Positions 15,101 to 48,570 are shown, counted from the stretch's first letter. The stretch is 64,000 nucleotides of DNA from Actinomycetota bacterium (GCA_034667405.1 JAXDJX010000019.1:1620-65619); one strand, 5' to 3'. Made by a program: numbers and translations. The notes: generated by a model not told the origin, from the sequence alone.

Positions 15101-15550
15101 TCAGGGAAGTTCGGCCGCGTCGATGACGAGCGTCACCGGGCCGTCGTTCAGCAGTTCGACCTGCATGTCGGCGCCGAAGACGCCTTGCCGGACCGGCACG
15201 CCCACGGCCTCCAGCGCGTTGGCGAACGCCTCCACCCGCGCAGCGGCGATCGCCGGATCCTCCGCCCCCGTCCAGGACGGACGCCGGCCCTTCCGGATGT
15301 CGCCGTAGAGCGTGAACTGACTCACGACCAGTACCTGGCCGTCCACATCGGGGAGCGCCAGATTCATCTTGCCCTCCGCGTCCGGGAAGACCCGGAGCGT
15401 CGAGATCTTCGTCGCGAGCTTCACCTCTTCACCCGGTGGATCACCCGTGCCGACGCCGACCAGGAGCAGGAACCCGCGGCCGATCTCTGCGACCACCGAT
15501 CCGGAAACGCTGACGGAGGCACGCGAGACGCGTTGGAGGACCACCCGCAT
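15101..15550 (-). CDS. dtd: D-aminoacyl-tRNA deacylase
   Basis: 149 aa. [13 protein letters not shown]...SQFTLYGD, the conserved Dtd SQFTL motif. Confidence 0.9.
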
Positions 15551-15562
15551 CCGTGCGACGCC

Positions 15563-17872
15563 CTAGCTCGGGACGACCCGGTAGGTGTCGTAGACCCCTT
15601 CCACCCGCTTCACCGCGGCGAGCACGCTCGACAGATGTGCGATGTCGGCCATCTCGAAGGTGAACCGCAGTCGCGTGATCCGGTCGCGGCCCGTGGATGA
15701 GTTCGCGCTGAGGATATTGACGTGGCTGTCCGAGAGCACCGTCGCCACGTCGGAGAGCAACCTGGTTCGATCCAGTGCTTCCACCTGGATGGCCACGGTG
15801 AACGAGGTCGGTTTCCCCTCGGACCACGTGACCTCGATGATCCGTTCGGGTGCCTGCCGCAGCGAGCCCACGTTCGGACAGTCCGTTCGATGGACGCTCA
15901 CCCCCTGGCCCTTGGTGACGAACCCCAGGATGTCGTCGCCCGGAACCGGCGTGCAACACCGCGACAGCCGGACCCAGACGTCGGGCAGTCCCTTCACCAC
16001 GACGCCTTGACCGATCTCCTGCTTCCCGATCTTCACCGGGCGAGCGAGCGGCACTTCGGTCACGTCTTCGTCTGAATGGCCGGTGAGGAGGCGGGCGATC
16101 CGAGCCACGACCGACTGCGGGGACACATGTCCTTCCCCGAGCGCGACGTAAAGGTCTTCGAGCTTCGTGTACTTCAGTTCGTCGGCGACCTGGCTGAGCG
16201 TGTCTTCGGTCGCGAGCCGCTTGAACGGCAGGTTCTGCTTCCGCATGAGCCGCTGAAGCGCGTCCTTGCCCTGATCCAGGGCATCTTCGCGGCGCCCGCG
16301 GGTGAACCATTGCCGGATCTTCGAACGAGCCCGCGGCGTCTGCACGAACTGGAGCCAGTCCTGGCTGGGGCCTTCGCCCTGGGCTTTGGACGTGAGGATG
16401 TCGACGGTGTCACCGGTCCGAAGCTCGTAGTCGAGCGGCACCAACTTCCCACCGACCTTCGCACCGACGGTTCGGTGGCCGACCTCGGTGTGGATGGCGT
16501 AGGAGAAGTCCACCGGCGTGGCGCCGAGCGGCAGATTCACCACGTCACCCTTCGGCGTGAACACGAACACACGGCCACCGGACAGGTCGATCTTCAACGA
16601 ATCCATGAACTCGCGCGGATCGGCCATGTCCTTCAGCCAATCCATCATCTGGCTCAGCCAGGCGAGGTCGGCGGCGTCGCGGCGCTCTTTGACCCCTTCC
16701 TTGTAGCGCCAGTGCGCGGCGATGCCGTACTGGGCGGTTCGGTGCATGTCCCGGGTGCGGATCTGGATCTCGAGCGGTCGACCGGCCGGGCCTACCACCG
16801 TGGTGTGCAGGGACTGGTACATGTTCGACTTGGGCATGGCGACGTAATCCTTGAAGCGTCCGGGGACGGGCTTCCATAACGCGTGAACGGCACCGAGCGC
16901 TCCGTAACAGTCCTTGAGTGACTCAACCTGGATCCGCACTCCCACCAGGTCGAAGATCTCGTTGAACTCCTTGCCGCGGATGACCATCTTCTCGTAGATG
17001 GAATACAGGTGCTTCGGACGGCCGTCCACGTCTGCCTTGATGCCGAGTTCCTTCAGCTTCGTTCGGAGTGACTCGGTCACCTCGTTGATGAGAGCCTGTC
17101 GTTCGCCGCGGCGGTTCTCGACGAGGTTGGCGATCTCCCGGTACGGACCCGGATGCAGCGCCTTGAACGAGAGGTCTTCGAGTTCCCATTTGATCTCCTG
17201 CACGCCGAGCCGGTTCGCGAGCGGTGCGTAGATCTCGAGTGTCTCCGTCGCGATCCTCCGTTGCTTCTCCCGCGTGAGAGGAGCCAGGGTTCGCATGTTG
17301 TGCAGGCGGTCGGACAGCTTGATCAGCAGGACGCGGATGTCGCCCGCCATCGCCACGATCATCTTGCGAACGTTCTCGGCCTGCTCTTGTTCGCGGCTCC
17401 TGAACTCCAGTTTGTCCAGCTTCGTCAGTCCGTCCACGATCCCTGCGACCTCGGTGCCGAACTGCTCTTCCAGCTGGGCGATGGTCACCGAGGTGTCCTC
17501 GACGGTGTCATGCAGAAGGGCCGCCTCGAGGCTCGTCGTGTCCAGGTGGAGTTGTGCTGCGATCCGCGCGACGGCAAGCGGATGCTCGATGAACTCCTCG
17601 CCGGACTTCCGCCGCTGCCCCTCGTGGGCCACCTCGGCGAACCGAAAGGCGCGCTCGATCTCCTTCAGGTCGGCCTTCTGGTTGTAGGCGCGCACGTCCC
17701 GCAGCAGTGGGTCTACGCGGGTGGGCCTCTCCGCGCGACGGCGGCGAGGCCGAGGGATCCGCCCACCCCGCCGTTGTGCCGGCGGTTCCGGGCCGATGGA
17801 CTCGCCTGCGGGCGACGGCTGGTCAGCGGCTTCCGGTGAGGGTTCGACCTTCACCCGTTCCTGCTCGTCCAC
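15563..17872 (-). CDS. relA: Bifunctional (p)ppGpp synthetase/hydrolase RelA/SpoT (Rel)
   Basis: 769 aa. HD hydrolase domain (HPLAVA...HDTVEDT), synthetase domain (RFKDYVAMPKSNMYQSLHTTV), and TGS and ACT C-terminal domains. Confidence 0.95.
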   Translation of the reverse strand: MDEQERVKVEPSPEAADQPSPAGESIGPEPPAQRRGGRIPRPRRRRAERPTRVDPLLRDVRAYNQKADLKEIERAFRFAEVAHEGQRRKSGEEFIEHPLAVARIAAQLHLDTTSLEAALLHDTVEDTSVTIAQLEEQFGTEVAGIVDGLTKLDKLEFRSREQEQAENVRKMIVAMAGDIRVLLIKLSDRLHNMRTLAPLTREKQRRIATETLEIYAPLANRLGVQEIKWELEDLSFKALHPGPYREIANLVENRRGERQALINEVTESLRTKLKELGIKADVDGRPKHLYSIYEKMVIRGKEFNEIFDLVGVRIQVESLKDCYGALGAVHALWKPVPGRFKDYVAMPKSNMYQSLHTTVVGPAGRPLEIQIRTRDMHRTAQYGIAAHWRYKEGVKERRDAADLAWLSQMMDWLKDMADPREFMDSLKIDLSGGRVFVFTPKGDVVNLPLGATPVDFSYAIHTEVGHRTVGAKVGGKLVPLDYELRTGDTVDILTSKAQGEGPSQDWLQFVQTPRARSKIRQWFTRGRREDALDQGKDALQRLMRKQNLPFKRLATEDTLSQVADELKYTKLEDLYVALGEGHVSPQSVVARIARLLTGHSDEDVTEVPLARPVKIGKQEIGQGVVVKGLPDVWVRLSRCCTPVPGDDILGFVTKGQGVSVHRTDCPNVGSLRQAPERIIEVTWSEGKPTSFTVAIQVEALDRTRLLSDVATVLSDSHVNILSANSSTGRDRITRLRFTFEMADIAHLSSVLAAVKRVEGVYDTYRVVPS

Positions 17873-40274: not shown

Positions 40275-40349
40275 TGGTGGGCGCGGCAGGTTTTGAACCT
40301 GCGACCTCTCGCGTGTGAGGCGAGCGCTCTCCCGCTGAGCTACGCGCCC
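40275..40349 (-). tRNA. tRNA-Val (anticodon CAC)
   Basis: Reverse complement GGGCGCGTAGCTCAGCGGGAGAGCGCTCGCCTCACACGCGAGAGGTCGCAGGTTCAAAACCTGCCGCGCCCACCA folds as a cloverleaf. Anticodon loop CTCACAC, encoded CCA. Confidence 0.85.
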
Positions 40350-40655
40350 GGGAGCCCTCTCACGATACCAACGAACGCAGCGTCACCGAGTTCGAACAAG
40401 GTGACGGCGGCACGTGCCCGCGTCGTGCCGCCGTCGGTCCGAGTCGCTGAGACTCAGACGTTTGAGGTAGTGCGCGCTGACTAGTCTGGCACGGGTCACG
40501 CGGCGCGAGCAAGCGGGAACTGGACGCCGAACACTCCCCCGCCCAAGAGGCCTTTGCCTCCTATCGGCCTCTGGAACACCGGGTGTACGGTGGCCGAGGG
40601 ACGCGCGATCGCGTCCGCGGAGGTGAGGGACTTGCGGAGCAGGAGAACGGTCACG

Positions 40656-41132
40656 ATGATCGCGGGCGCCCTGTTGCTGGTGATCGCCACGGCAGCCGCG
40701 ACCTACGGGACGGTGAGCCAGTACGTAGCGCGGCCTCTGAACCGTCAGAACCTCGGCGTCATCAAAGGGCCGCCGCGCACCACCCACTCGACATCGTTCA
40801 AAGACCTGGGTGGCTGGGGTCTGTCGGACGGGATGACCATCGACGCCCGTGCCGGCCTGGCTGCGACCCTAAGCGTCACCGTCAGCGGCGCCCCGGTGGA
40901 GTTCAGGATCTTCACCGAGGACGTGAACAACGGGTTCGCGATCCACAACCTTCCCCCCGGCTCGGCCCATTTCGATCCGGGGACCGGCACGCAATCCGTT
41001 TCCTTCACGTGGGTCTCTGGCCTGGCGGCGGGCCGCTACACCGTGAACATCGCCTGGAGGTCGCCGACGGGCGCCATCGTCACGCTCGATCGGGGGTCCC
41101 TGGTCGTTCAGTACGGCGCTCGCGTTCCCTGA
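40656..41132 (+). CDS. Hypothetical secreted/membrane-anchored protein
   Basis: ATG at about 40656 with an AGGAGAA RBS 8 nt upstream. N-terminal signal/anchor MIAGALLLVIATAAATYG, then a Gly/Thr/Val-rich probable beta-sandwich. High GC3. No recognisable family. Confidence 0.45.
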   Translation: MIAGALLLVIATAAATYGTVSQYVARPLNRQNLGVIKGPPRTTHSTSFKDLGGWGLSDGMTIDARAGLAATLSVTVSGAPVEFRIFTEDVNNGFAIHNLPPGSAHFDPGTGTQSVSFTWVSGLAAGRYTVNIAWRSPTGAIVTLDRGSLVVQYGARVP

Positions 41133-41138
41133 TCGACG

Positions 41139-41711
41139 CTACCGGGTCTGCTGCGTCGTGTCGGAAGAAGCGAACTGGCGAACCAGCGTATCCATGAGTT
41201 TTGCGTAGGGCTCCCGGAATAAGAGCCATGCTTCCCAACCGTCTTCGCCCCGGAGCACCACGCCCGTCCATCGGTTGCTCACGCCAGTGAACGAGACCTC
41301 CTTGAGGTCACGCACGGGGATACCGAACTCCTTCGCCCCGATGTACCGCCCATGTGTGCCGGGCATCCAGACGAACGAGTCCTTCTGCACCCACGCGTTG
41401 CCCGCCACCCACCCGATCGAACGGGGGATCCGGCCGAACGACGCGGGAGTCTCGAGGTCGATCTGCCGCATCCGCGGTACCCCAACGCTGCGCCCAACCA
41501 CGAGGAACGCTCGCCCTGTCCCTCTGTGGGGCTCATGCCTTCGTCCCCGAACGGGAACGATAGCCTCGCCCGCGAACAGCAACGCTACGGCGAGCGCGGC
41601 CGAGGCCACGACACCAACCAACCTCCAGGCGCGCCGTCGTCGCCGGATGGCGAGCCAGCTCCGTCGCTCATCGTCGCTCCCTGCACGAAACGTCGGCGTT
41701 TCGACGGACAC
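41139..41711 (-). CDS. Hypothetical membrane-anchored protein (possible bacterial PH-like domain)
   Basis: 190 aa. Arg-rich N-terminus then a TM helix (LVGVVASAALAVALLFAG). Coding-like GC3. Function unknown. Confidence 0.45.
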   Translation of the reverse strand: MSVETPTFRAGSDDERRSWLAIRRRRRAWRLVGVVASAALAVALLFAGEAIVPVRGRRHEPHRGTGRAFLVVGRSVGVPRMRQIDLETPASFGRIPRSIGWVAGNAWVQKDSFVWMPGTHGRYIGAKEFGIPVRDLKEVSFTGVSNRWTGVVLRGEDGWEAWLLFREPYAKLMDTLVRQFASSDTTQQTR

Positions 41712-41830
41712 TCGGATCCTCCGGTCGTCGAGATACTTCCTCGCGCAGATGGGTTCAGTTCCAACCTAGGGGAACCATCCCGCGCCGATGGTACGTCGCA
41801 TCCCCATCTTTCAGCCAAGGAGGGTGCTCC

Positions 41831-42892
41831 ATGCGGACACGACTCGGCTCTCGTGCGGCGGGAATGGCCATCGCGACGACGGTTCTCATCATCGGCTCGG
41901 CGGGCGGCGCACTCGCGTGTGGGGGGCTGATCGCTCCCAACGGCACGATCAGCCTCACCCGCACGACGACGCTCGCCGCCTACCACGACGGCATCGAGCA
42001 CTACATCACGTCGTTCACCTACGCGGGCGATGCCGCGGGTGATGTGGGCTCGATCGTTCCGCTTCCCGGTGTTCCCACCGACGTCATCAAGGGCGGAGAC
42101 TGGACCCTTCAGCGCCTGGAGCTCGAAGTGCATCCACCTGCGCCGTTCGCAGGTGCTGCCGTGGCCGCGAGCACTGCCGGCGCCGAGGTGATCCTTCGGA
42201 CCACCGTCGACTCCCTGGACATCACCGTATTGAAGGGTGGCGCAATCGACGTCGGGACGTGGGCACGCGATCACGGATTCTTCCTGCCACCCGACGCGCC
42301 GGCGGTTCTGGACTTCTACGCGCAGCGCAGTCCCATCTTCATGGCGGTGAAGTTCAACGCGGAACGCGCCGCCGCCCAAGGTGTGAACCAAGGCGAGGGA
42401 ACCCCGGTCGATGTCGTGATCCCCACCCCGCATCCGTGGGTGCCGCTCCGCATCCTCACCCTGGGCCAGGATCCAGACGCGCTGGTACAAGCGGACGTGT
42501 TCCTGCTGACCGACCGTCGGCCCTCGATGCTGCCGCAGACGATCGCACCGTCACGCGGCACCGGCCAGGAGGGTCTGATCCAGCGCGTGAGCGAACCGGC
42601 GTCTGCATCGCTCCTGAACGATCTGCGGCGGGACGACCGCATGTCCTGGGTCCCTCGCGAGATGTGGCTCACGTTCATCGATGTCAACGCGAGGGCCGCC
42701 GACGTCACCCATGACCTGTCCATCGACGCCAGCGGTTACGGGCGGCCCGATCCGATCGCTGCCGGCTACGCGGCTCCCGAACGGCTCGCCTCGACCTCGG
42801 CGACGCCCAGCATCATCGTGACACTCGCGATGCTCTCCGTTGGCGCAGTCCTCTTCGAGTCGCGACGACGCAGGCACCTTTCGGCGCGATGA
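41831..42892 (+). CDS. DUF2330-like secreted protein with C-terminal transmembrane anchor
   Basis: 353 aa with a strong RBS AAGGAGGG. Signal peptide (MAIATTVLIIGSAGGALA), mature N-terminal CGG, C-terminal Ser/Thr linker plus TM plus RRRRH tail. The DUF2330 assignment is from recollection of the family pattern. Confidence 0.55.
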   Translation: MRTRLGSRAAGMAIATTVLIIGSAGGALACGGLIAPNGTISLTRTTTLAAYHDGIEHYITSFTYAGDAAGDVGSIVPLPGVPTDVIKGGDWTLQRLELEVHPPAPFAGAAVAASTAGAEVILRTTVDSLDITVLKGGAIDVGTWARDHGFFLPPDAPAVLDFYAQRSPIFMAVKFNAERAAAQGVNQGEGTPVDVVIPTPHPWVPLRILTLGQDPDALVQADVFLLTDRRPSMLPQTIAPSRGTGQEGLIQRVSEPASASLLNDLRRDDRMSWVPREMWLTFIDVNARAADVTHDLSIDASGYGRPDPIAAGYAAPERLASTSATPSIIVTLAMLSVGAVLFESRRRRHLSAR

Positions 42893-43302
42893 TGCGGCGC
42901 CCCACGCTCCGGGCGGTTATGGCACTGATCGTCGCGGCCCCGGCGTGTGTCCGGGCGTCAGCGACTCCGGGGATCCGAAGCGTCACGATCACCATCCACT
43001 ATTCGCAGTTCTCATTGAGCGATCTGACCGTCGCTCCTGGAGAGACCGTGCGATTCGTGGTGGAGAACACCGATCCCATCGATCACGAGTTCATCCTGGG
43101 CGACCAGTACGTCCAAGACATCCATGAGAACGGGACGGAGGCACATCATCCGCCGAAGCCCGGCGAGATGACCATCCCGGCAGGCACCGCGCGGGTTACG
43201 ACGTACACATTCCCCACCGCGCCCACCCAACTGATCTTCGCCTGCCACCTACCGGGGCACTACGCCTACGGGATGCACGGCTTGGTGTTCGTAGCGCCCT
43301 GA
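42889..43302 (+). CDS. Cupredoxin (plastocyanin/azurin-like type 1 copper protein), secreted
   Basis: 137 aa with a signal peptide. Candidate Cu ligands are His (PIDHEF), then Cys-x4-His-x4-Met in FACHLPGHYAYGMHG. Start overlaps the DUF2330 gene stop (ATGA). Confidence 0.65.
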   Translation: MMRRPTLRAVMALIVAAPACVRASATPGIRSVTITIHYSQFSLSDLTVAPGETVRFVVENTDPIDHEFILGDQYVQDIHENGTEAHHPPKPGEMTIPAGTARVTTYTFPTAPTQLIFACHLPGHYAYGMHGLVFVAP

Positions 43303-43339
43303 TCCTGAAGACCTCCCCCGTCGACGAGGCGAGTACTAA

Positions 43340-44020
43340 TCATTCGCCTCGGAGGGGACCCGAGGAACCCTGCCATGCAGCTGGAAGTGTGGGCGGCGTC
43401 TCCCAGCGGAAGTAGTTGCTGATGATGGCCAGGCAGAGGCCATGGTTGGGGCCGGGGATCGCACACGTGAGTTTGGTGTTGGATTCGGTGGGCTGGTTGG
43501 TGACCGCAACGACCCCGATCGTCGTCTCCGGTCCCCCGGAGGGGTCACCCGTACCGAATACGCCTGGCGGGTCCACGAACACGGCGACCGTGGGACTCGG
43601 ATGCGAGACGAGCTCGCCCTTGACAGGTTTCGTGGCGAGGTATCTGCAATAGCCACGAGGGAGGTGGATCGAGAAGAGCGAACACACCGCCGATCCCATG
43701 GACGCGTGATCCTCCGTAACCGTCACGATCCCCTCTCGCATGCCGGGCGACCAGACGCTGAGGTAGAGGGAACCATCGCCACCGACATCACCTTGGCAGA
43801 TCGTCCACTCGCTTGGCGCCAAGACGCTCTGGAACCCGTCGCTGAACAACGAGAGCTGCGCGAGGGCGGCGTTCGATGCCGCAGGCGGCGCCAAAGGAGG
43901 CGGGGCCGAGGTTGTGGCTCGGGTCTCGGGGCCCAACGGGCATCTCACGACAGGAATCTGCGGCCGCCCCGGATCGGTGTCCGACCGACTCGCGGGCGAG
44001 TGACACGCGGACGAGAGCAT
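43340..44020 (-). CDS. Hypothetical Cys-rich protein (possible lipoprotein)
   Basis: 226 aa with 8 Cys and coding-like GC3. The in-frame upstream translation reads RTLAATLAAATMLSSAC (a lipobox-like LSSAC) but offers no canonical start before reaching tRNA-Val, so the N-terminus is uncertain. Confidence 0.4.
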   Translation of the reverse strand: MLSSACHSPASRSDTDPGRPQIPVVRCPLGPETRATTSAPPPLAPPAASNAALAQLSLFSDGFQSVLAPSEWTICQGDVGGDGSLYLSVWSPGMREGIVTVTEDHASMGSAVCSLFSIHLPRGYCRYLATKPVKGELVSHPSPTVAVFVDPPGVFGTGDPSGGPETTIGVVAVTNQPTESNTKLTCAIPGPNHGLCLAIISNYFRWETPPTLPAAWQGSSGPLRGE

Positions 44021-44129
44021 CGTCGCCGCGGCCAGGGTGGCCGCTAGCGTCCTCGAACCCTCGAAACGCCTGCGTGTCCCCGTGCTACGGCTTAAAGCGG
44101 ACGGTGTCGCACCGGGTCGTCGTTTCGCG

Positions 44130-44204
44130 TGGTGGGCGATGGAGGATTTGAACCTCCGACCTCTTCCATGTCAAGGAAGCGCTCTCCCCCTGAGCTAATC
44201 GCCC
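44130..44204 (-). tRNA. tRNA-Val (anticodon GAC)
   Basis: Reverse complement GGGCGATTAGCTCAGGGGGAGAGCGCTTCCTTGACATGGAAGAGGTCGGAGGTTCAAATCCTCCATCGCCCACCA. Anticodon loop TTGACAT, encoded CCA. Confidence 0.85.
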
Positions 44205-44247
44205 GTGCGGCGTATCGAGGGTACAGCCTGAAGGCCGTGTGGTGCAG

Positions 44248-44318
44248 AGGCGGGGACCGGAATCGAACCGGTGTGCGAGGCTTTGCAGGCCTCTGCCTAA
44301 CCACTCGGCCACCCCGCC
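44248..44318 (-). tRNA. tRNA-Cys (anticodon GCA)
   Basis: Reverse complement GGCGGGGTGGCCGAGTGGTTAGGCAGAGGCCTGCAAAGCCTCGCACACCGGTTCGATTCCGGTCCCCGCCT. Anticodon loop CTGCAAA, U73 discriminator, CCA not encoded. Confidence 0.8.
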
Positions 44319-44494
44319 GGGTGTGCGCGGGCCAGTCTATCGAAGGACACGCGAACGACTCGGGGGACATCGCGGCAGCGGACCTAAGCCACAGCCGCAT
44401 CCATTCGGAAGGTAAACCGTGTACCGCTTGACCGATGCGCCCAGAGGAGTGCCCCGCTACCTTGGCACACCCCACGAACGGAAGGATCCCCCTG

Positions 44495-44794
44495 ATGGCC
44501 CCCACGACGGAAGCGGCACCGGAGCGCATCTACATCTTGCAGCACCGCGACCGCAGCGGCCTGCGAGCCCGTCTGTCGGAGCAGGCCACGCCAGCCCCTC
44601 GTCCGATGGAGATCGACGTCGAACTCCGCGCCGCGATGCTCGAGAGAGAACGCCAAGACAGGCACGGACGCGGTGGGCAATTCTGGAGCGGTGCGGCGCG
44701 GAACCTCGCCCGTCTCCCCGGGGGCAGCCAGATCTCAGGATCGTCCGCGCTGGATACCCTGGATCTCACCGGAAGGTCTTTGCACCTGCGCTGA
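44495..44794 (+). CDS. Small hypothetical protein (about 99 aa) wedged between tRNA-Cys and tRNA-Gly on the opposite strand
   Basis: ATG at about 44495 preceded by GGAAGGA 9 nt upstream. Very high GC3. Product [22 protein letters not shown]... has no recognisable motif. The longer track ORF start (44435) is less likely. Confidence 0.3.
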
Positions 44795-44798
44795 GATC

Positions 44799-44873
44799 TG
44801 GAGCGGACGACGGGATTCGAACCCGCGACCCCCACCTTGGCAAGGTGGTGCTCTACCACTGAGCCACGTCCGC
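44799..44873 (-). tRNA. tRNA-Gly (anticodon GCC)
   Basis: Reverse complement GCGGACGTGGCTCAGTGGTAGAGCACCACCTTGCCAAGGTGGGGGTCGCGGGTTCGAATCCCGTCGTCCGCTCCA. Anticodon loop TTGCCAA, U73, encoded CCA. Confidence 0.85.
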
Positions 44874-44923: not shown

Positions 44924-45358
44924 CTACGAGGAGCCGGTGGAGCCGAATCCGCCCTCTCCACGCGCGCTCTCCGGCAGATCCTTCACCCACACCGGCGCCA
45001 CGACCGGCACGGCAACCAGCACCAGCTGCGCGATACGGTCCCCCACCGCGATCTCCACGGGCGTCGATCGATCCAGGTTCACCATCGCGCACATCACCTC
45101 GCCGCGGTAGCCCGCATCGATCAACCCCGGAGTGTTGGCCACGGTGAGGCCGTGTTTCGAGGCCAACCCCGATCTGGGAAGCACCAGCCCCGCATGCCCG
45201 TCGGGGATCGCGACAGCCACGCCGGTAGGGACCATCGCGCGCTCCCCCGGCGCGATGGTGAGGGCGATCGTCGATCGCAAATCTAGCCCGGCGTCGCCGG
45301 GGTGCTGGGCCTGGGGCAGCGCGGCCCCTTCGGTCAGTCGACGGAACGGAAGGTCCAC
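44924..45358 (-). CDS. dut: dUTP diphosphatase
   Basis: 144 aa with dUTPase motifs (AGLDL, PRSGLASKHG, GLIDAGYRGE, GERIAQL-like, RGEGGFGSTG). Confidence 0.9.
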   Translation of the reverse strand: MDLPFRRLTEGAALPQAQHPGDAGLDLRSTIALTIAPGERAMVPTGVAVAIPDGHAGLVLPRSGLASKHGLTVANTPGLIDAGYRGEVMCAMVNLDRSTPVEIAVGDRIAQLVLVAVPVVAPVWVKDLPESARGEGGFGSTGSS

Positions 45359-45804: not shown

Positions 45805-48570
45805 CTACGAGCAGCCGCTCGTAGAACCACAACTGGAGCAGACGTAGCACGATCCCGCCGGCTGCATCTTGGAACCGCACGAGTAGCAGAGCGGAGCGTC
45901 CAGGATCCTCGCCGACTGCCGCTCGGTGATCTCGATGGGTTGGGACATCTTCGGTGGCTCAGGCGCCTGCAACAGATCCTCGGACTCGCCGGCTTGGAGT
46001 TCGCCGAGCTTCTGGGCAGCCTCGGCCAGGGCCGTCTCTTTCCGCTCAGAGATCGAGCGGATCCCGAGTCCCTCCCGGGTCTCCTCGCTCAAATGATCGA
46101 GGGCGAGACGCCGGAACGTGTAGTCCAGGAGCGATGAGGCGAACCGGATGTCCGGGTCGTTGGTCATCCCCGACGGTTCGAACTTCATGTTGATGAACTT
46201 CGACACGAAGGTCTCCAGTGGCACCCCGTACTGCAGCCCGATGGAGATGGCGATCGAGAACGCATCCATCACTCCCGCGAGCGTCGAACCCTGCTTGGAC
46301 GTCTTGAGGAAGATCTCTCCCAGGCCATCGTCGGGGTAACTACCGGCCGTGATGTAGCCTTCGGCATCCCCCACCGCGAACGACGTGGTTCGGCTGGGGC
46401 GCGACATCGGCAGGCGCTTGCGGACCGGGGTGGCTAGCGTTGCGGGCTCGCCCGCATCCGCGGTGGCCGACTTCTTCTTGTCGGCCGACAGCGGCTGTGC
46501 AACCTTGCAGTTGTCGCGGTAGATGGCGACCGCTTTCAGCCCGAGCTTCCAGGATTCGATGAAGAGCTGCTCCACCTCTTCCACGGTCGCCGACTCCGGC
46601 ATGTTCACCGTCTTGGAGATGGCACCCGAGATGAACGGCTGTGCCACAGCCATCATCCGAACGTGCCCCATGTAGTGGATGGGCTCCGCTCCCATCGCCG
46701 TATCGAACACGGAGTAGTGCTCGGACTTCAGGTGCGGCGCATCGACAACCGAGTTGTGTTCGGCGATGTACCCGACGACGTCGTCGATCTGCCCAGCGTC
46801 GTAGCCGAGCTTGTCCAGCGCCCGCGGCACCGTCTGATTGACGAACTGCATGGTGCCACCGCCGACCAGCTTCTTCGTCTTCACGAGCGCCAGTTCGGGC
46901 TCGATGCCCGTGGTGTCGCAATCCATCATCAGGCCGATGGTGCCCGTGGGCGCCAGCACGCTGGCCTGTGCGTTGCGGTAGCCGTGCTTCTCGCCCAGGC
47001 TGATGGCCTCGTCCCACGCGTTCTTGGCTGAGGACAGGAGCGCCTCTGGCACGATGTCGCCGTCGATCGTGTCCACGGCCGCGCGGTGCTTGCGGATGAC
47101 GCGGAGCATGGCGTCGGCATTCGGTCGGTAGCCCTGGAACGGACCCATGGCGTCGGCGATCTTCGCGCTGGTTCGGTACGCGTGGCCGGTCATGAGCGCG
47201 GTGATGGCTCCGGCCCACGCGCGCCCACCGTCGGAGTCATACGCGAGCCCCCGCGCCATGAGGAGGGCGCCGAGGTTCGCGTATCCGAGGCCGAGCTGGC
47301 GGTAGGCCCGTGCGTTCTCACCGATCTTCTCGGTGGGGTAGCTGGACTCACCCACCAGGATCTCCTGCGCGGTGAAGACGACCTGGACCGCGTGCTTGAA
47401 GCTGGCCACGTCGAAGTTGCCCTCGTCGTCCAGGAACTTCATGAGGTTCAGCGATGCCAGGTTGCACGCGCTGTTATCCAGGTGCATGTACTCCGAGCAC
47501 GGGTTGGAACCGTTGATCCGTCCGCTGGCCGGGCACGTATGCCATTCGTTGATGGTGGTGTCGTACTGCATGCCGGGGTCGGCGCACTGCCACGCGGCCT
47601 CGGAGATCTGCCGCATGAGGTTCCGTGCGCGGACGGTGTGCACGGTCTCGTCGGTGGTGATGGCCTTGAGCTTCCAATCCTGATCCTGCTCGTACGCCTG
47701 CATGAACGCATCCGTCACGCGAACGGAGTTGTTCGCGTTCTGATACTGGATGGAGGCGCTGTCTTTGCCGTCGAGGTCCATGTCGAACCCGGCGTCGCGC
47801 AGGGCGCGGGCCTTCTGCTCTTCGTTGGATTTGCACCAGATGAAGTCCTCGACGTCGGGGTGATCGACGTTGAGGATGACCATCTTCGCGGCGCGCCGTG
47901 TCTTGCCGCCGGACTTGATGGTCCCGGCGGAGGCGTCGGCCCCGCGCATGAAGCTCACTGGACCCGAGGCGGTTCCGCCCCCGGCCAGCGTCTCCTTGGA
48001 CGAACGGATCTTCGACAGGTTGATCCCCGAACCCGAGCCGCCCTTGAAGATGGTGCCTTCTTCCACGTACCAGTTCAGGATCGAGCTCATGTGGTCGTCG
48101 ACCGCCAAGATGAAGCACGCTGAGCACTGCTGCGGGGTGTCGGGGACGCCGACGTTGAACCAGACCGGAGAGTTGAACGCAGCCTTCTGCGTGACGATGA
48201 GGTGGGTCAGTTCGTCGGCGAAGATCTGCGCGTCGTCCTTAGTGGCGAAGTACCCGTTCTTCTCCCCCCAGCCCCGGATCGTGTCGACGACCCTGCCGGC
48301 GAGCTGACGAACGGAGGTTTCGCGCTGCGGCGTGCCCAGGGTTCCGCGGAAATACTTCTGCGCGACGATGTTCGTCGCGTTCTGTGACCAGCTCTTCGGG
48401 AATTCGACATCCCGCTGTTCGAACGCGTTGCCACCCTCCTTGAAGTTCGGGATGACCGCGTCGCGGGTCTCCCATTCGACATCCTCGAACGGGTGGTGTC
48501 CCTCGCTGGTGAAGTACCGCTTGAAGGTCAATCCCTCCCGGATGACCTCCACATCCCCCTTGTTCGCCAT
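45805..48570 (-). CDS. nrdJ: Vitamin B12 (adenosylcobalamin)-dependent ribonucleoside-diphosphate reductase, class II
   Basis: 921 aa. RNR barrel with active-site Cys/Asn/Glu region (NPCSEYMHLDNSACNLASLNL), a radical Cys loop and a C-terminal Cys-rich tail CYSCGS...CYVCSSCGSTSGCS. Confidence 0.95.
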   Translation of the reverse strand: MANKGDVEVIREGLTFKRYFTSEGHHPFEDVEWETRDAVIPNFKEGGNAFEQRDVEFPKSWSQNATNIVAQKYFRGTLGTPQRETSVRQLAGRVVDTIRGWGEKNGYFATKDDAQIFADELTHLIVTQKAAFNSPVWFNVGVPDTPQQCSACFILAVDDHMSSILNWYVEEGTIFKGGSGSGINLSKIRSSKETLAGGGTASGPVSFMRGADASAGTIKSGGKTRRAAKMVILNVDHPDVEDFIWCKSNEEQKARALRDAGFDMDLDGKDSASIQYQNANNSVRVTDAFMQAYEQDQDWKLKAITTDETVHTVRARNLMRQISEAAWQCADPGMQYDTTINEWHTCPASGRINGSNPCSEYMHLDNSACNLASLNLMKFLDDEGNFDVASFKHAVQVVFTAQEILVGESSYPTEKIGENARAYRQLGLGYANLGALLMARGLAYDSDGGRAWAGAITALMTGHAYRTSAKIADAMGPFQGYRPNADAMLRVIRKHRAAVDTIDGDIVPEALLSSAKNAWDEAISLGEKHGYRNAQASVLAPTGTIGLMMDCDTTGIEPELALVKTKKLVGGGTMQFVNQTVPRALDKLGYDAGQIDDVVGYIAEHNSVVDAPHLKSEHYSVFDTAMGAEPIHYMGHVRMMAVAQPFISGAISKTVNMPESATVEEVEQLFIESWKLGLKAVAIYRDNCKVAQPLSADKKKSATADAGEPATLATPVRKRLPMSRPSRTTSFAVGDAEGYITAGSYPDDGLGEIFLKTSKQGSTLAGVMDAFSIAISIGLQYGVPLETFVSKFINMKFEPSGMTNDPDIRFASSLLDYTFRRLALDHLSEETREGLGIRSISERKETALAEAAQKLGELQAGESEDLLQAPEPPKMSQPIEITERQSARILDAPLCYSCGSKMQPAGSCYVCSSCGSTSGCS

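Follow-up and report, generated by a model that had tools for sequence, protein, structure and literature searches.

Between two tRNA-Val genes of an Actinomycetota genome, within the 64,000-nt stretch of DNA that was analysed as a whole (the window), lies a short run of genes that a sequence-only reading had described as a single accessory envelope/copper module. The locus raises the question of whether these genes belong together and, for those that do, what their products might do outside the membrane.

The interval between the tRNA genes

ARAGORN and Rfam place all four tRNA genes where they had been placed before (Table 1), and the interval holds five coding ORFs (g1 to g5) on strands +, -, +, + and -, again as previously described. 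GC3 amounts to 0.77–0.86 in g1–g5 and to 0.83–0.88 in the flanks; since the five resemble the flanking housekeeping genes in this respect, all are coding. GC is flat at about 0.65 (0.62–0.68 throughout).

Table 1. Features of the interval and its flanks, in positions of the window
Feature	Position	Strand	Details
tRNA-Val(CAC)	40275-40349	minus	ARAGORN and Rfam (tRNA, 71 bits); left boundary of the variable gap
g1, hypothetical protein	40656..41132	+	158 aa from ATG 40656; N-terminal hydrophobic anchor or signal
g2, hypothetical protein	41139..41711	-	190-aa form from GTG 41711; transmembrane segment at residues 27-56
Predicted ECF-sigma-type promoter	41771..41797	+	GGAAC-N18-CGTC; ends 33 nt before the g3 start codon
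Shine-Dalgarno sequence of g3	41818-41824	+	AAGGAGG
g3, DUF2330 protein	41831..42892	+	353 aa; Pfam DUF2330 (PF10092)
g4, secreted type-1 cupredoxin	42889..43302	+	137 aa; Pfam Copper-bind (PF00127)
g5, 7-Cys lipoprotein-family gene	43340..44020	-	ORF from ATG 44020 starts within its own signal peptide
tRNA-Val(GAC)	44130-44204	minus	ARAGORN and Rfam; right boundary of the variable gap, with tRNA-Cys
tRNA-Cys	44247-44318	minus	ARAGORN and Rfam; right boundary (44130..44318 with tRNA-Val(GAC))
tRNA-Gly(GCC)	44799-44873	minus	ARAGORN and Rfam; in the conserved backbone, adjoins dut
dut	44924-45358		beside tRNA-Gly(GCC)

The surrounding backbone runs nrdJ, glyoxalase, dut, tRNA-Gly, tRNA-Cys, tRNA-Val(GAC), the gap, tRNA-Val(CAC) and an ABC transporter. 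In relatives the nrdJ-dut-tRNA...tRNA-ABC frame is retained, but unrelated genes occupy the gap; the order dut, tRNA-Gly, tRNA-Cys, tRNA-Val(GAC) is kept in many metagenomic relatives, and one relative (L089) has the same tRNA-Val(CAC) followed by the same ABC ATPase. Among the relatives compared, the same five genes were not seen to recur between the same tRNAs throughout. The backbone is conserved and the interval is its variable gap, occupied by three lineage-specific near-orphans and by a two-gene operon that is widely conserved. The proposal of a single module fails in this respect: g1, g2 and g5 never occur alongside the DUF2330-cupredoxin pair formed by g3 and g4 and stand outside it.

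The N-terminus of g1 is hydrophobic and its GC3 is 0.86; an alternative start at TTG 40632 would possibly extend it to 166 aa. It has no Pfam or NCBIfam match, was not found in any of 160 related loci, and appears in GenBank as hypothetical protein MEA2580637.1, whose 90% cluster has only four members. Likewise g2 (GC3 of 0.78) has no family match in Pfam or NCBIfam and was not found in the related loci. Its description as a membrane-anchored protein stands if translation begins at GTG 41711, which is preceded by GGAGG, and falls if it begins at ATG 41471, the start of a 110-aa form that lacks the hydrophobic segment and is annotated as a hypothetical protein in a sister MAG. For g5, seven cysteines were counted instead of the eight reported, and its lipoprotein-like signal peptide, RRRFEGSRTLAATLAAATMLSSAC, lies upstream of the sole canonical start, ATG 44020. 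The frame of g5 is open over 43340-44128, and its upstream part, up to the tRNA, contains no ATG, GTG or TTG. A search of 5.8 billion proteins yielded just two homologs, of which one (P0308, 55% identity) carries a full lipoprotein signal, ...LLAATILSAC, in an unrelated genomic context.

The interval had also been judged not to be a recognisable mobile element, and this judgement was borne out: no integrase or recombinase is encoded among its five coding ORFs (ORF calls, Pfam, NCBIfam), no att duplication was found, the one long direct repeat being that between the paralogous tRNA-Val genes, which are alike along their whole length (76% over 96 nt), and no deviation from the flanks was found in GC or GC3. 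These absences make it highly improbable that the whole 3.8-kb interval was acquired horizontally with all five genes together, as a genomic island or as what is left of a tRNA-targeting mobile element. The tRNA genes on both sides, a content wholly unlike that of relatives with the same flanks, the near-orphan status of g1, g2 and g5 and the seemingly 5'-truncated g5 would fit such an origin; however, the g3-g4 pair is widespread by vertical descent and has no tRNA association in other loci, and the g5 homolog P0308 sits in a different context.

The DUF2330 protein and its cupredoxin neighbour

DUF2330 is a family of unknown function. The assignment of g3 to it was confirmed (45.9 bits over residues 29–230, gathering score 24.7), and PF10092 is precomputed for all 120 homologs among the matches listed. 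The earlier outline of the protein was confirmed as well: the signal peptide (1–29) ends in A27-L28-A29, an A-x-A motif followed by Cys30 in C30-G-G, and the C-terminus consists of a hydrophobic segment (predicted transmembrane helix at about 323–344) with an RRRR tail. In between lie a conserved hairpin, Y51-H52-x-G54-x-E56-H57-Y58, and an invariant helix, GGDWTLQRLE (88–99), followed by a variable Ala-rich loop (102–116). Cys30 is the only cysteine of g3 and is present in 81/81 ungapped orthologs; the transmembrane segment with basic tail occurs in 67 of 83, and the distant members P0247, P0305 and P0299 share the same signal peptide/Cys/transmembrane/basic tail architecture. The polar residues C30, H52, E56, Y58, Y163, D228 and D295 are invariant in 78 DUF2330 sequences whose identity falls as low as 31%. 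H52 and H57 are substituted in some representative family members, which counts against a copper/redox role, and the invariant Cys30 could be just a lipid-attachment site.

The assignment of g4 as a type-1 cupredoxin holds, with Pfam Copper-bind above threshold (28.5 bits, cut-off 21.2) and a His plus Cys-x4-His-x4-Met set. The predicted copper ligands are H66 (43084-43086), C119 (43243-43245), H124 and M129, spaced C119-x4-H124-x4-M129; in 78 orthologs none of them falls below 95% conservation, and the alignment matches them to the ligand loop in auracyanin B and in 6kol. Further conserved residues are N60, D62, E67, H79, H87 and H120. Among the NCBIfam models the best matches are two for CopI, the periplasmic copper-tolerance cupredoxin of Rubrivivax gelatinosus, Pseudomonas aeruginosa and Vibrio cholerae. 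Membership in these families (NF051440 and NF047895) was considered and rejected, the scores of 61.3 bits (E = 1e-16) and 35.7 bits (E = 7e-9) being far below the equivalog cut-offs of 280 and 200; judged by its sequence, g4 is CopI-like and not a CopI member.

Both proteins are small, exported and single-domain, and the ligands of CopI (H70/C125/H130/M135) have the same C-x4-H-x4-M spacing as those of g4. In both, the stretch from the first His ligand to the Cys loop contains conserved histidines; in CopI it is here that the essential His/Met-rich Cu(I) site lies, and in the equivalent segment of g4, H79 and H87 are conserved and M94 is present, while no Met reaches 95% conservation. On the other hand, g4 is shorter than the CopI profile (137 aa vs 176–180 positions), and its mature N-terminus lacks the His-rich stretch found in CopI. 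The gene neighbourhoods differ too: the CopI gene adjoins copA/copR and copJ, whereas the partner of g4 is DUF2330, with no copper genes nearby.

The translational coupling described for g3 and g4 is present, the ATG of g4 overlapping the TGA of g3 as ATGA, and the suggested co-occurrence of the two families was found on a wide scale. Of 77 species-representative genomes that could be evaluated, 75 have a g4-type cupredoxin directly downstream of DUF2330 on the same strand, with a median gap of 2 nt. The genomes that carry the pair, all of them uncultured MAGs, belong to several phyla, mostly Actinomycetota and Chloroflexota. Export signals are found on both proteins throughout the family, and many Chloroflexota orthologs of g4 have a lipobox-like Cys. 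The pair sits in many unrelated contexts (urease, M1 peptidase, helicase and Crp regulators among others), and none of the copper genes sought (CopA, CopZ, CsoR, CopC/D, Sco, multicopper oxidase) recurs near it in the 77 loci. Soil Actinomycetota and Chloroflexota thus share a conserved operon for which no earlier study is known. The suggestion of an extracytoplasmic copper or redox function for it stands in part: the coupling of the pair and the predicted type-1 copper ligands agree with it, but no copper gene besides the cupredoxin co-occurs.

Type-1 copper sites usually transfer electrons, and the solved structures closest to g4 by sequence are auracyanins A and B of Chloroflexus (E = 5e-4 to 2e-2), the membrane-tethered blue copper proteins of Chloroflexota, together with another blue copper protein; all are electron carriers. 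DUF2330 might accordingly be an extracytoplasmic enzyme or substrate, thiol-based or redox-active in some other way, and the cupredoxin its private auracyanin-like electron carrier, which would connect it with respiration and play no part in copper tolerance. The predicted lipid anchoring of Chloroflexota g4 orthologs, as in auracyanin A, and the tight coupling of g3 and g4 would agree with a dedicated electron-transfer pair of this kind. It nevertheless appears unlikely, since DUF2330 has a single Cys and no recognisable cofactor motif, respiratory genes are absent near the 77 pair loci, DUF2330 subfamilies without a cupredoxin exist, and g4 scores far better with the CopI models than with those of plastocyanin, rusticyanin and nitrosocyanin (NCBIfam). 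Auracyanins themselves are respiratory/photosynthetic carriers with no DUF2330 pairing, and g4 differs from them by extra conserved His residues and its CopI-like profile.

A candidate stress promoter

The pattern GGAAC-N17/18-CGTC occurs at the position equivalent to that in Table 1 in 59 of 76 DUF2330 ortholog loci (shuffles: mean 0.4, maximum 3). It also precedes all five distant DUF2330 genes that lack a cupredoxin, one of them in a low-GC locus. The window taken by itself shows no enrichment of the pattern (4 copies against 3 expected). It shares its -35/spacer/-10 architecture with the validated sigma-E envelope-stress promoters of Streptomyces coelicolor, which have GGGAAC(C) at -35, a spacer of roughly 17 nt and CGTC(T/C) at -10, and which for the most part control genes for membrane proteins, secreted proteins or lipoproteins (PMC6767563), as in the DUF2330-cupredoxin operon. 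By contrast, sigma-C of C. glutamicum recognises CGACTA at -10, unlike the CGTC found here. The GGAAC/CGTC-type pattern is common to many ECF groups, and no ECF sigma-factor gene is encoded beside the operon or consistently adjacent in the ortholog loci. The operon appears to be driven by an ECF-type stress promoter and would presumably depend on a sigma factor of this class. Where such promoters have been studied, they signal cell-wall stress and not copper, which speaks against a copper reading (PMC6767563).

Fold of DUF2330 and possible function of the pair

The predicted DUF2330 fold is of the P35 type, resembling the viral caspase inhibitor P35, with Foldseek TM-scores of only 0.3–0.44; M1 aminopeptidases are matched in the same searches too, through their N-terminal domain, and the P35-like fold may therefore be generic. 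Neither this fold nor the conserved promoter had been noticed in the sequence-only reading. If the resemblance were functional, DUF2330 could be a membrane-tethered suicide substrate, in which a protease would cut the exposed variable loop after the conserved helix, leaving the free N-terminal Cys to capture or protect the acyl-enzyme in the manner of Cys2 of baculovirus P35, the cupredoxin being a clade-specific accessory. DUF2330 has a helix with a variable loop and an invariant first mature Cys, which may instead be lipidated. Such a protease trap is nonetheless improbable, as DUF2330 has no detectable sequence similarity to the P35-type inhibitors of baculoviruses and entomopoxviruses: alignment of an 81-sequence profile with P35 gave a probability of 0.2% (hhalign), and g3 has no match to Pfam Baculo_p35 at E <= 1. 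Additionally, the loop has no conserved cleavage residue and DUF2330 lacks the DxxD-type cleavage motif of the P35-type caspase inhibitors, the peptidases near the pair are clade-restricted and the M1 enzymes probably cytoplasmic, and the role of the cupredoxin would be left unexplained. P35 is a cytosolic viral protein, whereas DUF2330 is bacterial, exported and membrane-anchored. The N-terminal 8–10 mature residues of g3 are not confidently placed in either model, and no claim on metal-site geometry can therefore be made.

The best reading of the operon, to which we give a probability of roughly 40%, is an envelope-stress-induced extracytoplasmic copper/redox pair, a mechanism in which we infer the sigma dependence, copper binding, protein–protein interaction and direction of electron or metal flow. 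An envelope-type stress signal would free an ECF sigma factor and switch the operon on. The DUF2330 protein would then be exported through its A-x-A signal peptide, with the invariant Cys as first mature residue, and its C-terminal transmembrane helix would hold the putative P35-like beta-sandwich on the membrane's outer face. Outside the membrane, the secreted or lipid-anchored cupredoxin may bind and oxidise Cu(I), as proposed for CopI, or pass electrons; the tethered DUF2330 would be its partner, either as a hand-off site for metal or substrate or as a redox client, around Cys30, His52, Glu56 and Tyr58.

An extracytoplasmic copper/redox pair of this kind would be distinct from YcnI (DUF1775) of Bacillus subtilis, which belongs to another family with another domain size, uses an N-terminal His where DUF2330 has Cys, and has as operon partners the CopC/CopD-type YcnJ and the regulator YcnK instead of a cupredoxin. 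Concerning the origin of the pair, the cupredoxin is absent from five of five distant DUF2330 genes, and the core function of DUF2330 therefore needs no cupredoxin; DUF2330 may be an older autonomous stress protein that in one large subfamily recruited the cupredoxin as a partner.

Genes between the two tRNA-Val genes

The roughly 3.8-kb interval between tRNA-Val(CAC) and tRNA-Val(GAC) contains five open reading frames, g1 to g5. Their third-codon-position GC (0.77–0.86) resembles that of the flanking dut, nrdJ and ABC-transporter genes (0.83–0.88), and since overlapping alternative frames do not show it, the five are regarded as real coding frames. The assignment of g3 to DUF2330 (353 aa) and of g4 to the type-1 cupredoxins (137 aa), made earlier from the sequence alone, holds at Pfam thresholds (DUF2330 and Copper-bind), and their proposed translational coupling is visible in the overlap of the g4 ATG with the g3 TGA. 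GC content is even over the whole region, no recombinase occurs among the reading frames and the sole long repeat is the paralogy of the two tRNA-Val genes (76% similar), in agreement with the earlier statement that neither a recombinase nor an att duplication is present. A mobile element was rejected as the origin of the interval because integrase, att repeats and compositional signal are all absent.

Coordinates of the tRNA genes, reading frames and promoter motif in and beside the interval
Feature	Position	Strand	Remark
tRNA-Val(CAC)	40275-40349	-	ARAGORN + Rfam
g1	40554/40656-41132	+	ORF between tRNA-Val genes
g2	41139-41711	-	ORF between tRNA-Val genes
ECF-type promoter motif	41771-41797	+	33 nt before g3 ATG
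g3	41831-42892	+	DUF2330, above Pfam threshold
g4	42889-43302	+	Copper-bind, above Pfam threshold
g5	43340-44020	-	ORF between tRNA-Val genes
tRNA-Val(GAC)	44130-44204	-	ARAGORN + Rfam
tRNA-Cys	44247-44318	-	ARAGORN + Rfam
tRNA-Gly(GCC)	44799-44873	-	ARAGORN + Rfam

The other three are near-orphans: only three relatives of g1 reach 90% identity, the database record of g2 is a 110-aa hypothetical protein, and among 5.8 billion proteins there are two homologs of g5, one of which is a complete lipoprotein whose genomic setting is unrelated. Searches of the three against Pfam and NCBIfam gave nothing significant (only a sub-threshold DUF4850 match for g5), and PDB sequence searches with g1 and g2 returned chance-level matches only. 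The membrane anchor ascribed to g2 is present or not according to the start codon chosen. For g5, eight cysteines had been counted where there are seven; the lipobox-like signal reported for it is real insofar as its frame (43340-44128, minus strand) encodes a lipoprotein-type signal peptide, RRRFEGSRTLAATLAAATMLSSAC, homologous to that of P0308, its only distant homolog, but a canonical start codon is lacking: no ATG, GTG or TTG lies upstream of the signal peptide in the open frame, which reaches tRNA-Val(GAC). The single database copy of g5 begins with Leu at TTG 43894, and exact-sequence look-ups with nine alternative starts found none on record. As read from the sequence, g5 would be either 5'-truncated, a pseudogene or a gene that uses a non-canonical start.

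A scan for g3 in one genome per species yielded 80 loci from Actinomycetota, Chloroflexota (mostly Limnocylindria), one Armatimonadota and one Verrucomicrobiia. The contexts of the g3–g4 pair vary among them (urease, M1 aminopeptidase, UvrD helicases, Crp regulators, amidohydrolases), and g1, g2, g5 and the genes flanking the interval in the window are absent from every one. In the converse scan, metagenomes were searched with the neighbouring dut gene; the backbone of nrdJ, glyoxalase, dut, tRNA-Gly, tRNA-Cys and tRNA-Val(GAC) is widely kept, and one relative (L089) also shares tRNA-Val(CAC) and the ABC transporter that comes next to it in the window. The inter-tRNA gaps of these relatives carry unrelated cargo, such as an adenylate cyclase, an MFS/HEAT/cNMP protein, an ECF sigma factor, a Kelch protein and hydrolases, so that the same five genes do not recur between the same tRNAs. 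The differing contexts of the pair, the differing cargo between conserved flanks and the near-orphan character of g1, g2 and g5 therefore characterize the interval as a variable gap in which one conserved two-gene operon happens to lie. The sequence-only reading, in which the five genes formed a single envelope/copper module, is not supported on these grounds, and the 'tRNA-bounded islets' of these genomes are to be understood as variable gaps and not as modules. With its near-orphans between tRNA genes on one side and its even composition and lack of att repeats on the other, the whole interval is very unlikely to be the remnant of an island.

Other variable positions were seen nearby. In relative L096 an ECF sigma factor gene (Sigma70_r2/r4, 15157-15771) lies downstream of tRNA-Val(GAC), matching the gap of the window. 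The spacer from tRNA-Gly to tRNA-Cys is likewise variable in relatives L088-L131 (~40-90 nt up to ~5 kb); in the window (44319-44798) it measures 480 nt, with no convincing gene and an inverted repeat at 44625-44702. The match to nrdJ (class II ribonucleotide reductase) is interrupted by ~1 kb in two relatives (L102, 683-4513; L125, 5740-9582), where an intein or homing-endonuclease insertion may be present; nrdJ of the window (45805-48570) is unbroken.

Conservation and promoter of the operon

The coupling of DUF2330 with a cupredoxin noted in the window is confirmed: by tblastn, 75 of the 80 species loci have a co-directional g4 homolog immediately downstream of DUF2330. Three of the remaining five stop at a contig edge and two (L044 and L073) are truly without it. 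The distance from the g3 stop to the aligned g4 start is -25 to +55 nt in 72/74 loci (median 2 nt), and conservation of the operon spans phyla. Apparent DUF2330–cupredoxin fusions or long out-of-frame products were also seen (loci L034, 7704-9488, and L031; proteins P0138, P0218 and P0227), mostly in long-read MAGs, with garbled stretches rich in Arg and Pro that suggest indel errors and not true fusions.

When the 140-nt regions preceding the DUF2330 start codons were aligned, 59 of 76 loci proved to share GGAAC-N17/18-CGTC, against 0.4 on average and never more than 3 in shuffles; among loci with the N18 spacer the consensus reads gGGAACC ... CGTC(c/g)AA. Several of the loci lacking the motif have a same-strand gene ~57 nt upstream. 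Within the window alone the motif is not enriched (4 found vs 3 expected); the evidence for a promoter is its positional conservation across species. It shares the architecture of the validated envelope-stress promoters of Streptomyces coelicolor sigma-E, GGGAAC-N17-CGTCTT (PMC6767563), unlike Corynebacterium glutamicum sigma-C, which has CGACTA at -10 instead of CGTC. The copper-linked SigC is not claimed as the sigma factor of the operon, the SigC paper giving no consensus. An ECF sigma gene within ~8 kb of the operon was found at only three further loci and not in the window, and adjacency is not consistent. The divergent g2/g3 intergenic region (41712-41830) also contains an imperfect palindrome around CCTAGG (GATGGGTTC...GGAACCATC, ~41748-41779), which runs into the -35 element of the ECF-type promoter.

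Five distant DUF2330 loci (31-45% identity to g3) come from Ktedonobacteria-like Chloroflexota. Their proteins have the signal peptide, Cys start and C-terminal anchor of g3, the ECF-type motif lies upstream of all five, a low-GC genome included, and a cupredoxin neighbour is absent at all five. The promoter and the DUF2330 architecture are therefore family-wide and the cupredoxin a subfamily acquisition. Sequence analysis shows the operon to be self-contained, promoter-equipped and extracytoplasmic.

The cupredoxin and a possible copper function

The ligands of g4 (H66, C119, H124 and M129) are conserved at ≥95% among 78 orthologs, as are N60, D62, E67, H79, H87 and H120. Its top NCBIfam matches are two models of CopI, a periplasmic copper-tolerance cupredoxin (E = 1e-16 and 7e-9), both far under the equivalog cut-offs, and its nearest solved structures are auracyanins. 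The CopI of R. gelatinosus uses the ligands H70/C125/H130/M135; a segment rich in His and Met, located after the first His and ahead of the Cys loop, is essential in that protein and has been proposed to bind Cu(I), which the cupredoxin centre would then oxidize. g4 has the identical C-x4-H-x4-M spacing, and its H79 and H87 fall in the equivalent segment. All orthologs carry export signals, with a lipobox-like Cys in most Chloroflexota versions and an A-x-A end in those of Actinomycetota. The CopI-like matches, conserved ligands and export signals thus identify g4 as an extracytoplasmic type-1 cupredoxin, CopI-like and outside the CopI family.

The preferred reading is that the operon would be under ECF control and that its cupredoxin would act on copper or electrons outside the membrane, in a CopI-like manner, together with the tethered DUF2330 protein. 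Its probability is set at only about 0.4 because no other copper gene co-occurs, CopI membership fails, DUF2330 exists without the cupredoxin and no metal-site geometry is available. Around 77 pair loci no recurrent copper gene or regulator was found beyond the cupredoxin, which does not favour the copper-handling setting proposed earlier; the neighbours that do recur are all clade-specific (M1 peptidase, LigB, amidohydrolase, aldehyde dehydrogenase), and no classical periplasmic copper gene (CopC/D, multicopper oxidase) stands next to the pair in these genomes. A pure electron-transfer pair is a rather unlikely alternative. If the copper reading is true, abundant but uncultured Actinomycetota and Chloroflexota of soil would have in this operon a candidate system for handling copper outside the cytoplasm.

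In three Chloroflexota loci a ~170-180-aa membrane protein with the motif HWAHxLSGxLWVGGGFY is encoded upstream of DUF2330 on the same strand, ~50 nt away in L078 (7349-7873) and L081 (7330-7872) and ~1 kb away in L053 (6447-6950). Its family matches are sub-threshold only (Urate_ox_N, DUF4149), both presumably of the CopD-like membrane-domain superfamily.

The DUF2330 protein and its predicted fold

Word matching links g3 to more than 6,000 clusters at 90% identity, and a DUF2330 profile search returned 1,534 clusters at 50% identity. A search of an 8-million-paper library for DUF2330, PF10092 and COG4402 found no mention; the profile gave chance-level matches only and no related solved structure in a PDB sequence search, tblastn against a plasmid database gave no match, and IMG/VR viral contigs held no relative. 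Among 78 sequences, down to 31% identity, C30, G31, H52, G54, E56, Y58, Y163, D228, D295 (g3 numbering) and several Trp, Pro and Gly are invariant. A two-His copper site (H52/H57) was downgraded because both residues differ in some family representatives. Ahead of the Cys stand A/T/V (-3), L/A/F/W (-2) and A (-1); this end of the signal peptide suits the A-x-A rule of signal peptidase I at least as well as a lipobox, lipidation being possible too. Conservation is high over the ten residues following Cys30, an uncommon property in a lipoprotein tether.

AlphaFold models of full-length g3 (pLDDT 75.9, pTM 0.69) and of its mature domain with a more diverse alignment (pLDDT 78.1, pTM 0.78) are both beta-sandwiches, with low confidence only in the 8-10 residues that begin the mature protein and in loop 102-116, which is variable, rich in Ala and follows the invariant helix GGDWTLQRLE. 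Outside DUF2330 the predicted fold is known only from viral caspase inhibitors (P35-like), and the P35 fold of baculovirus and entomopoxvirus is not known to have cellular relatives. P35, the baculovirus inhibitor, has an N-terminal Cys2 and a reactive-site loop following helix alpha-1; the modelled DUF2330 protein likewise has a Cys as first mature residue and a helix plus loop, which are suggestive parallels. By sequence no similarity between the two was detected (hhalign, Pfam), and a literature search for bacterial P35 homologs found nothing relevant. DUF2330 proteins could be cellular counterparts of the P35 fold, acting as ECF-stress-induced, membrane-tethered 'mousetraps' in which a free N-terminal Cys, exposed by signal peptidase I, would perform P35-like thioester capture or other N-terminal-Cys chemistry outside the cell, one large clade coupling this chemistry to a dedicated blue-copper redox partner. 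Such a proposal is improbable, and a P35-like protease trap equally so; if true, it would give a cellular origin and a second chemistry to a fold thought to be virus-only, and a cellular P35-fold family with N-terminal-Cys chemistry, as a minority reading, would be of high interest.

Taken singly, the components belong to known kinds (blue-copper protein, ECF-type promoter, variable gap beside a tRNA cluster); the obligate DUF2330–cupredoxin pairing, the family-wide ECF-type promoter and the predicted P35-like fold with a first-residue Cys were not found in the searched literature. DUF2330 thereby gains three handles: a putative ECF stress promoter conserved over two phyla, the obligate CopI-like blue-copper partner of one large clade, and a predicted viral-type fold with a first mature Cys.

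Peptidase genes adjoin DUF2330 in several loci; they may reflect clade synteny only and are notable beside a P35-like fold. In one clade, 18-19 loci (including L008, L013, L015, L017, L020, L022-L026, L028, L030-L032 and L084) have a co-directional M1 aminopeptidase gene ~150 nt upstream; an M14 carboxypeptidase gene adjoins DUF2330 in two loci (L077, L085) and an S8 peptidase gene in one (L005), and a pro-kumamolisin (S53) gene adjoins one of the distant DUF2330 genes (L166).
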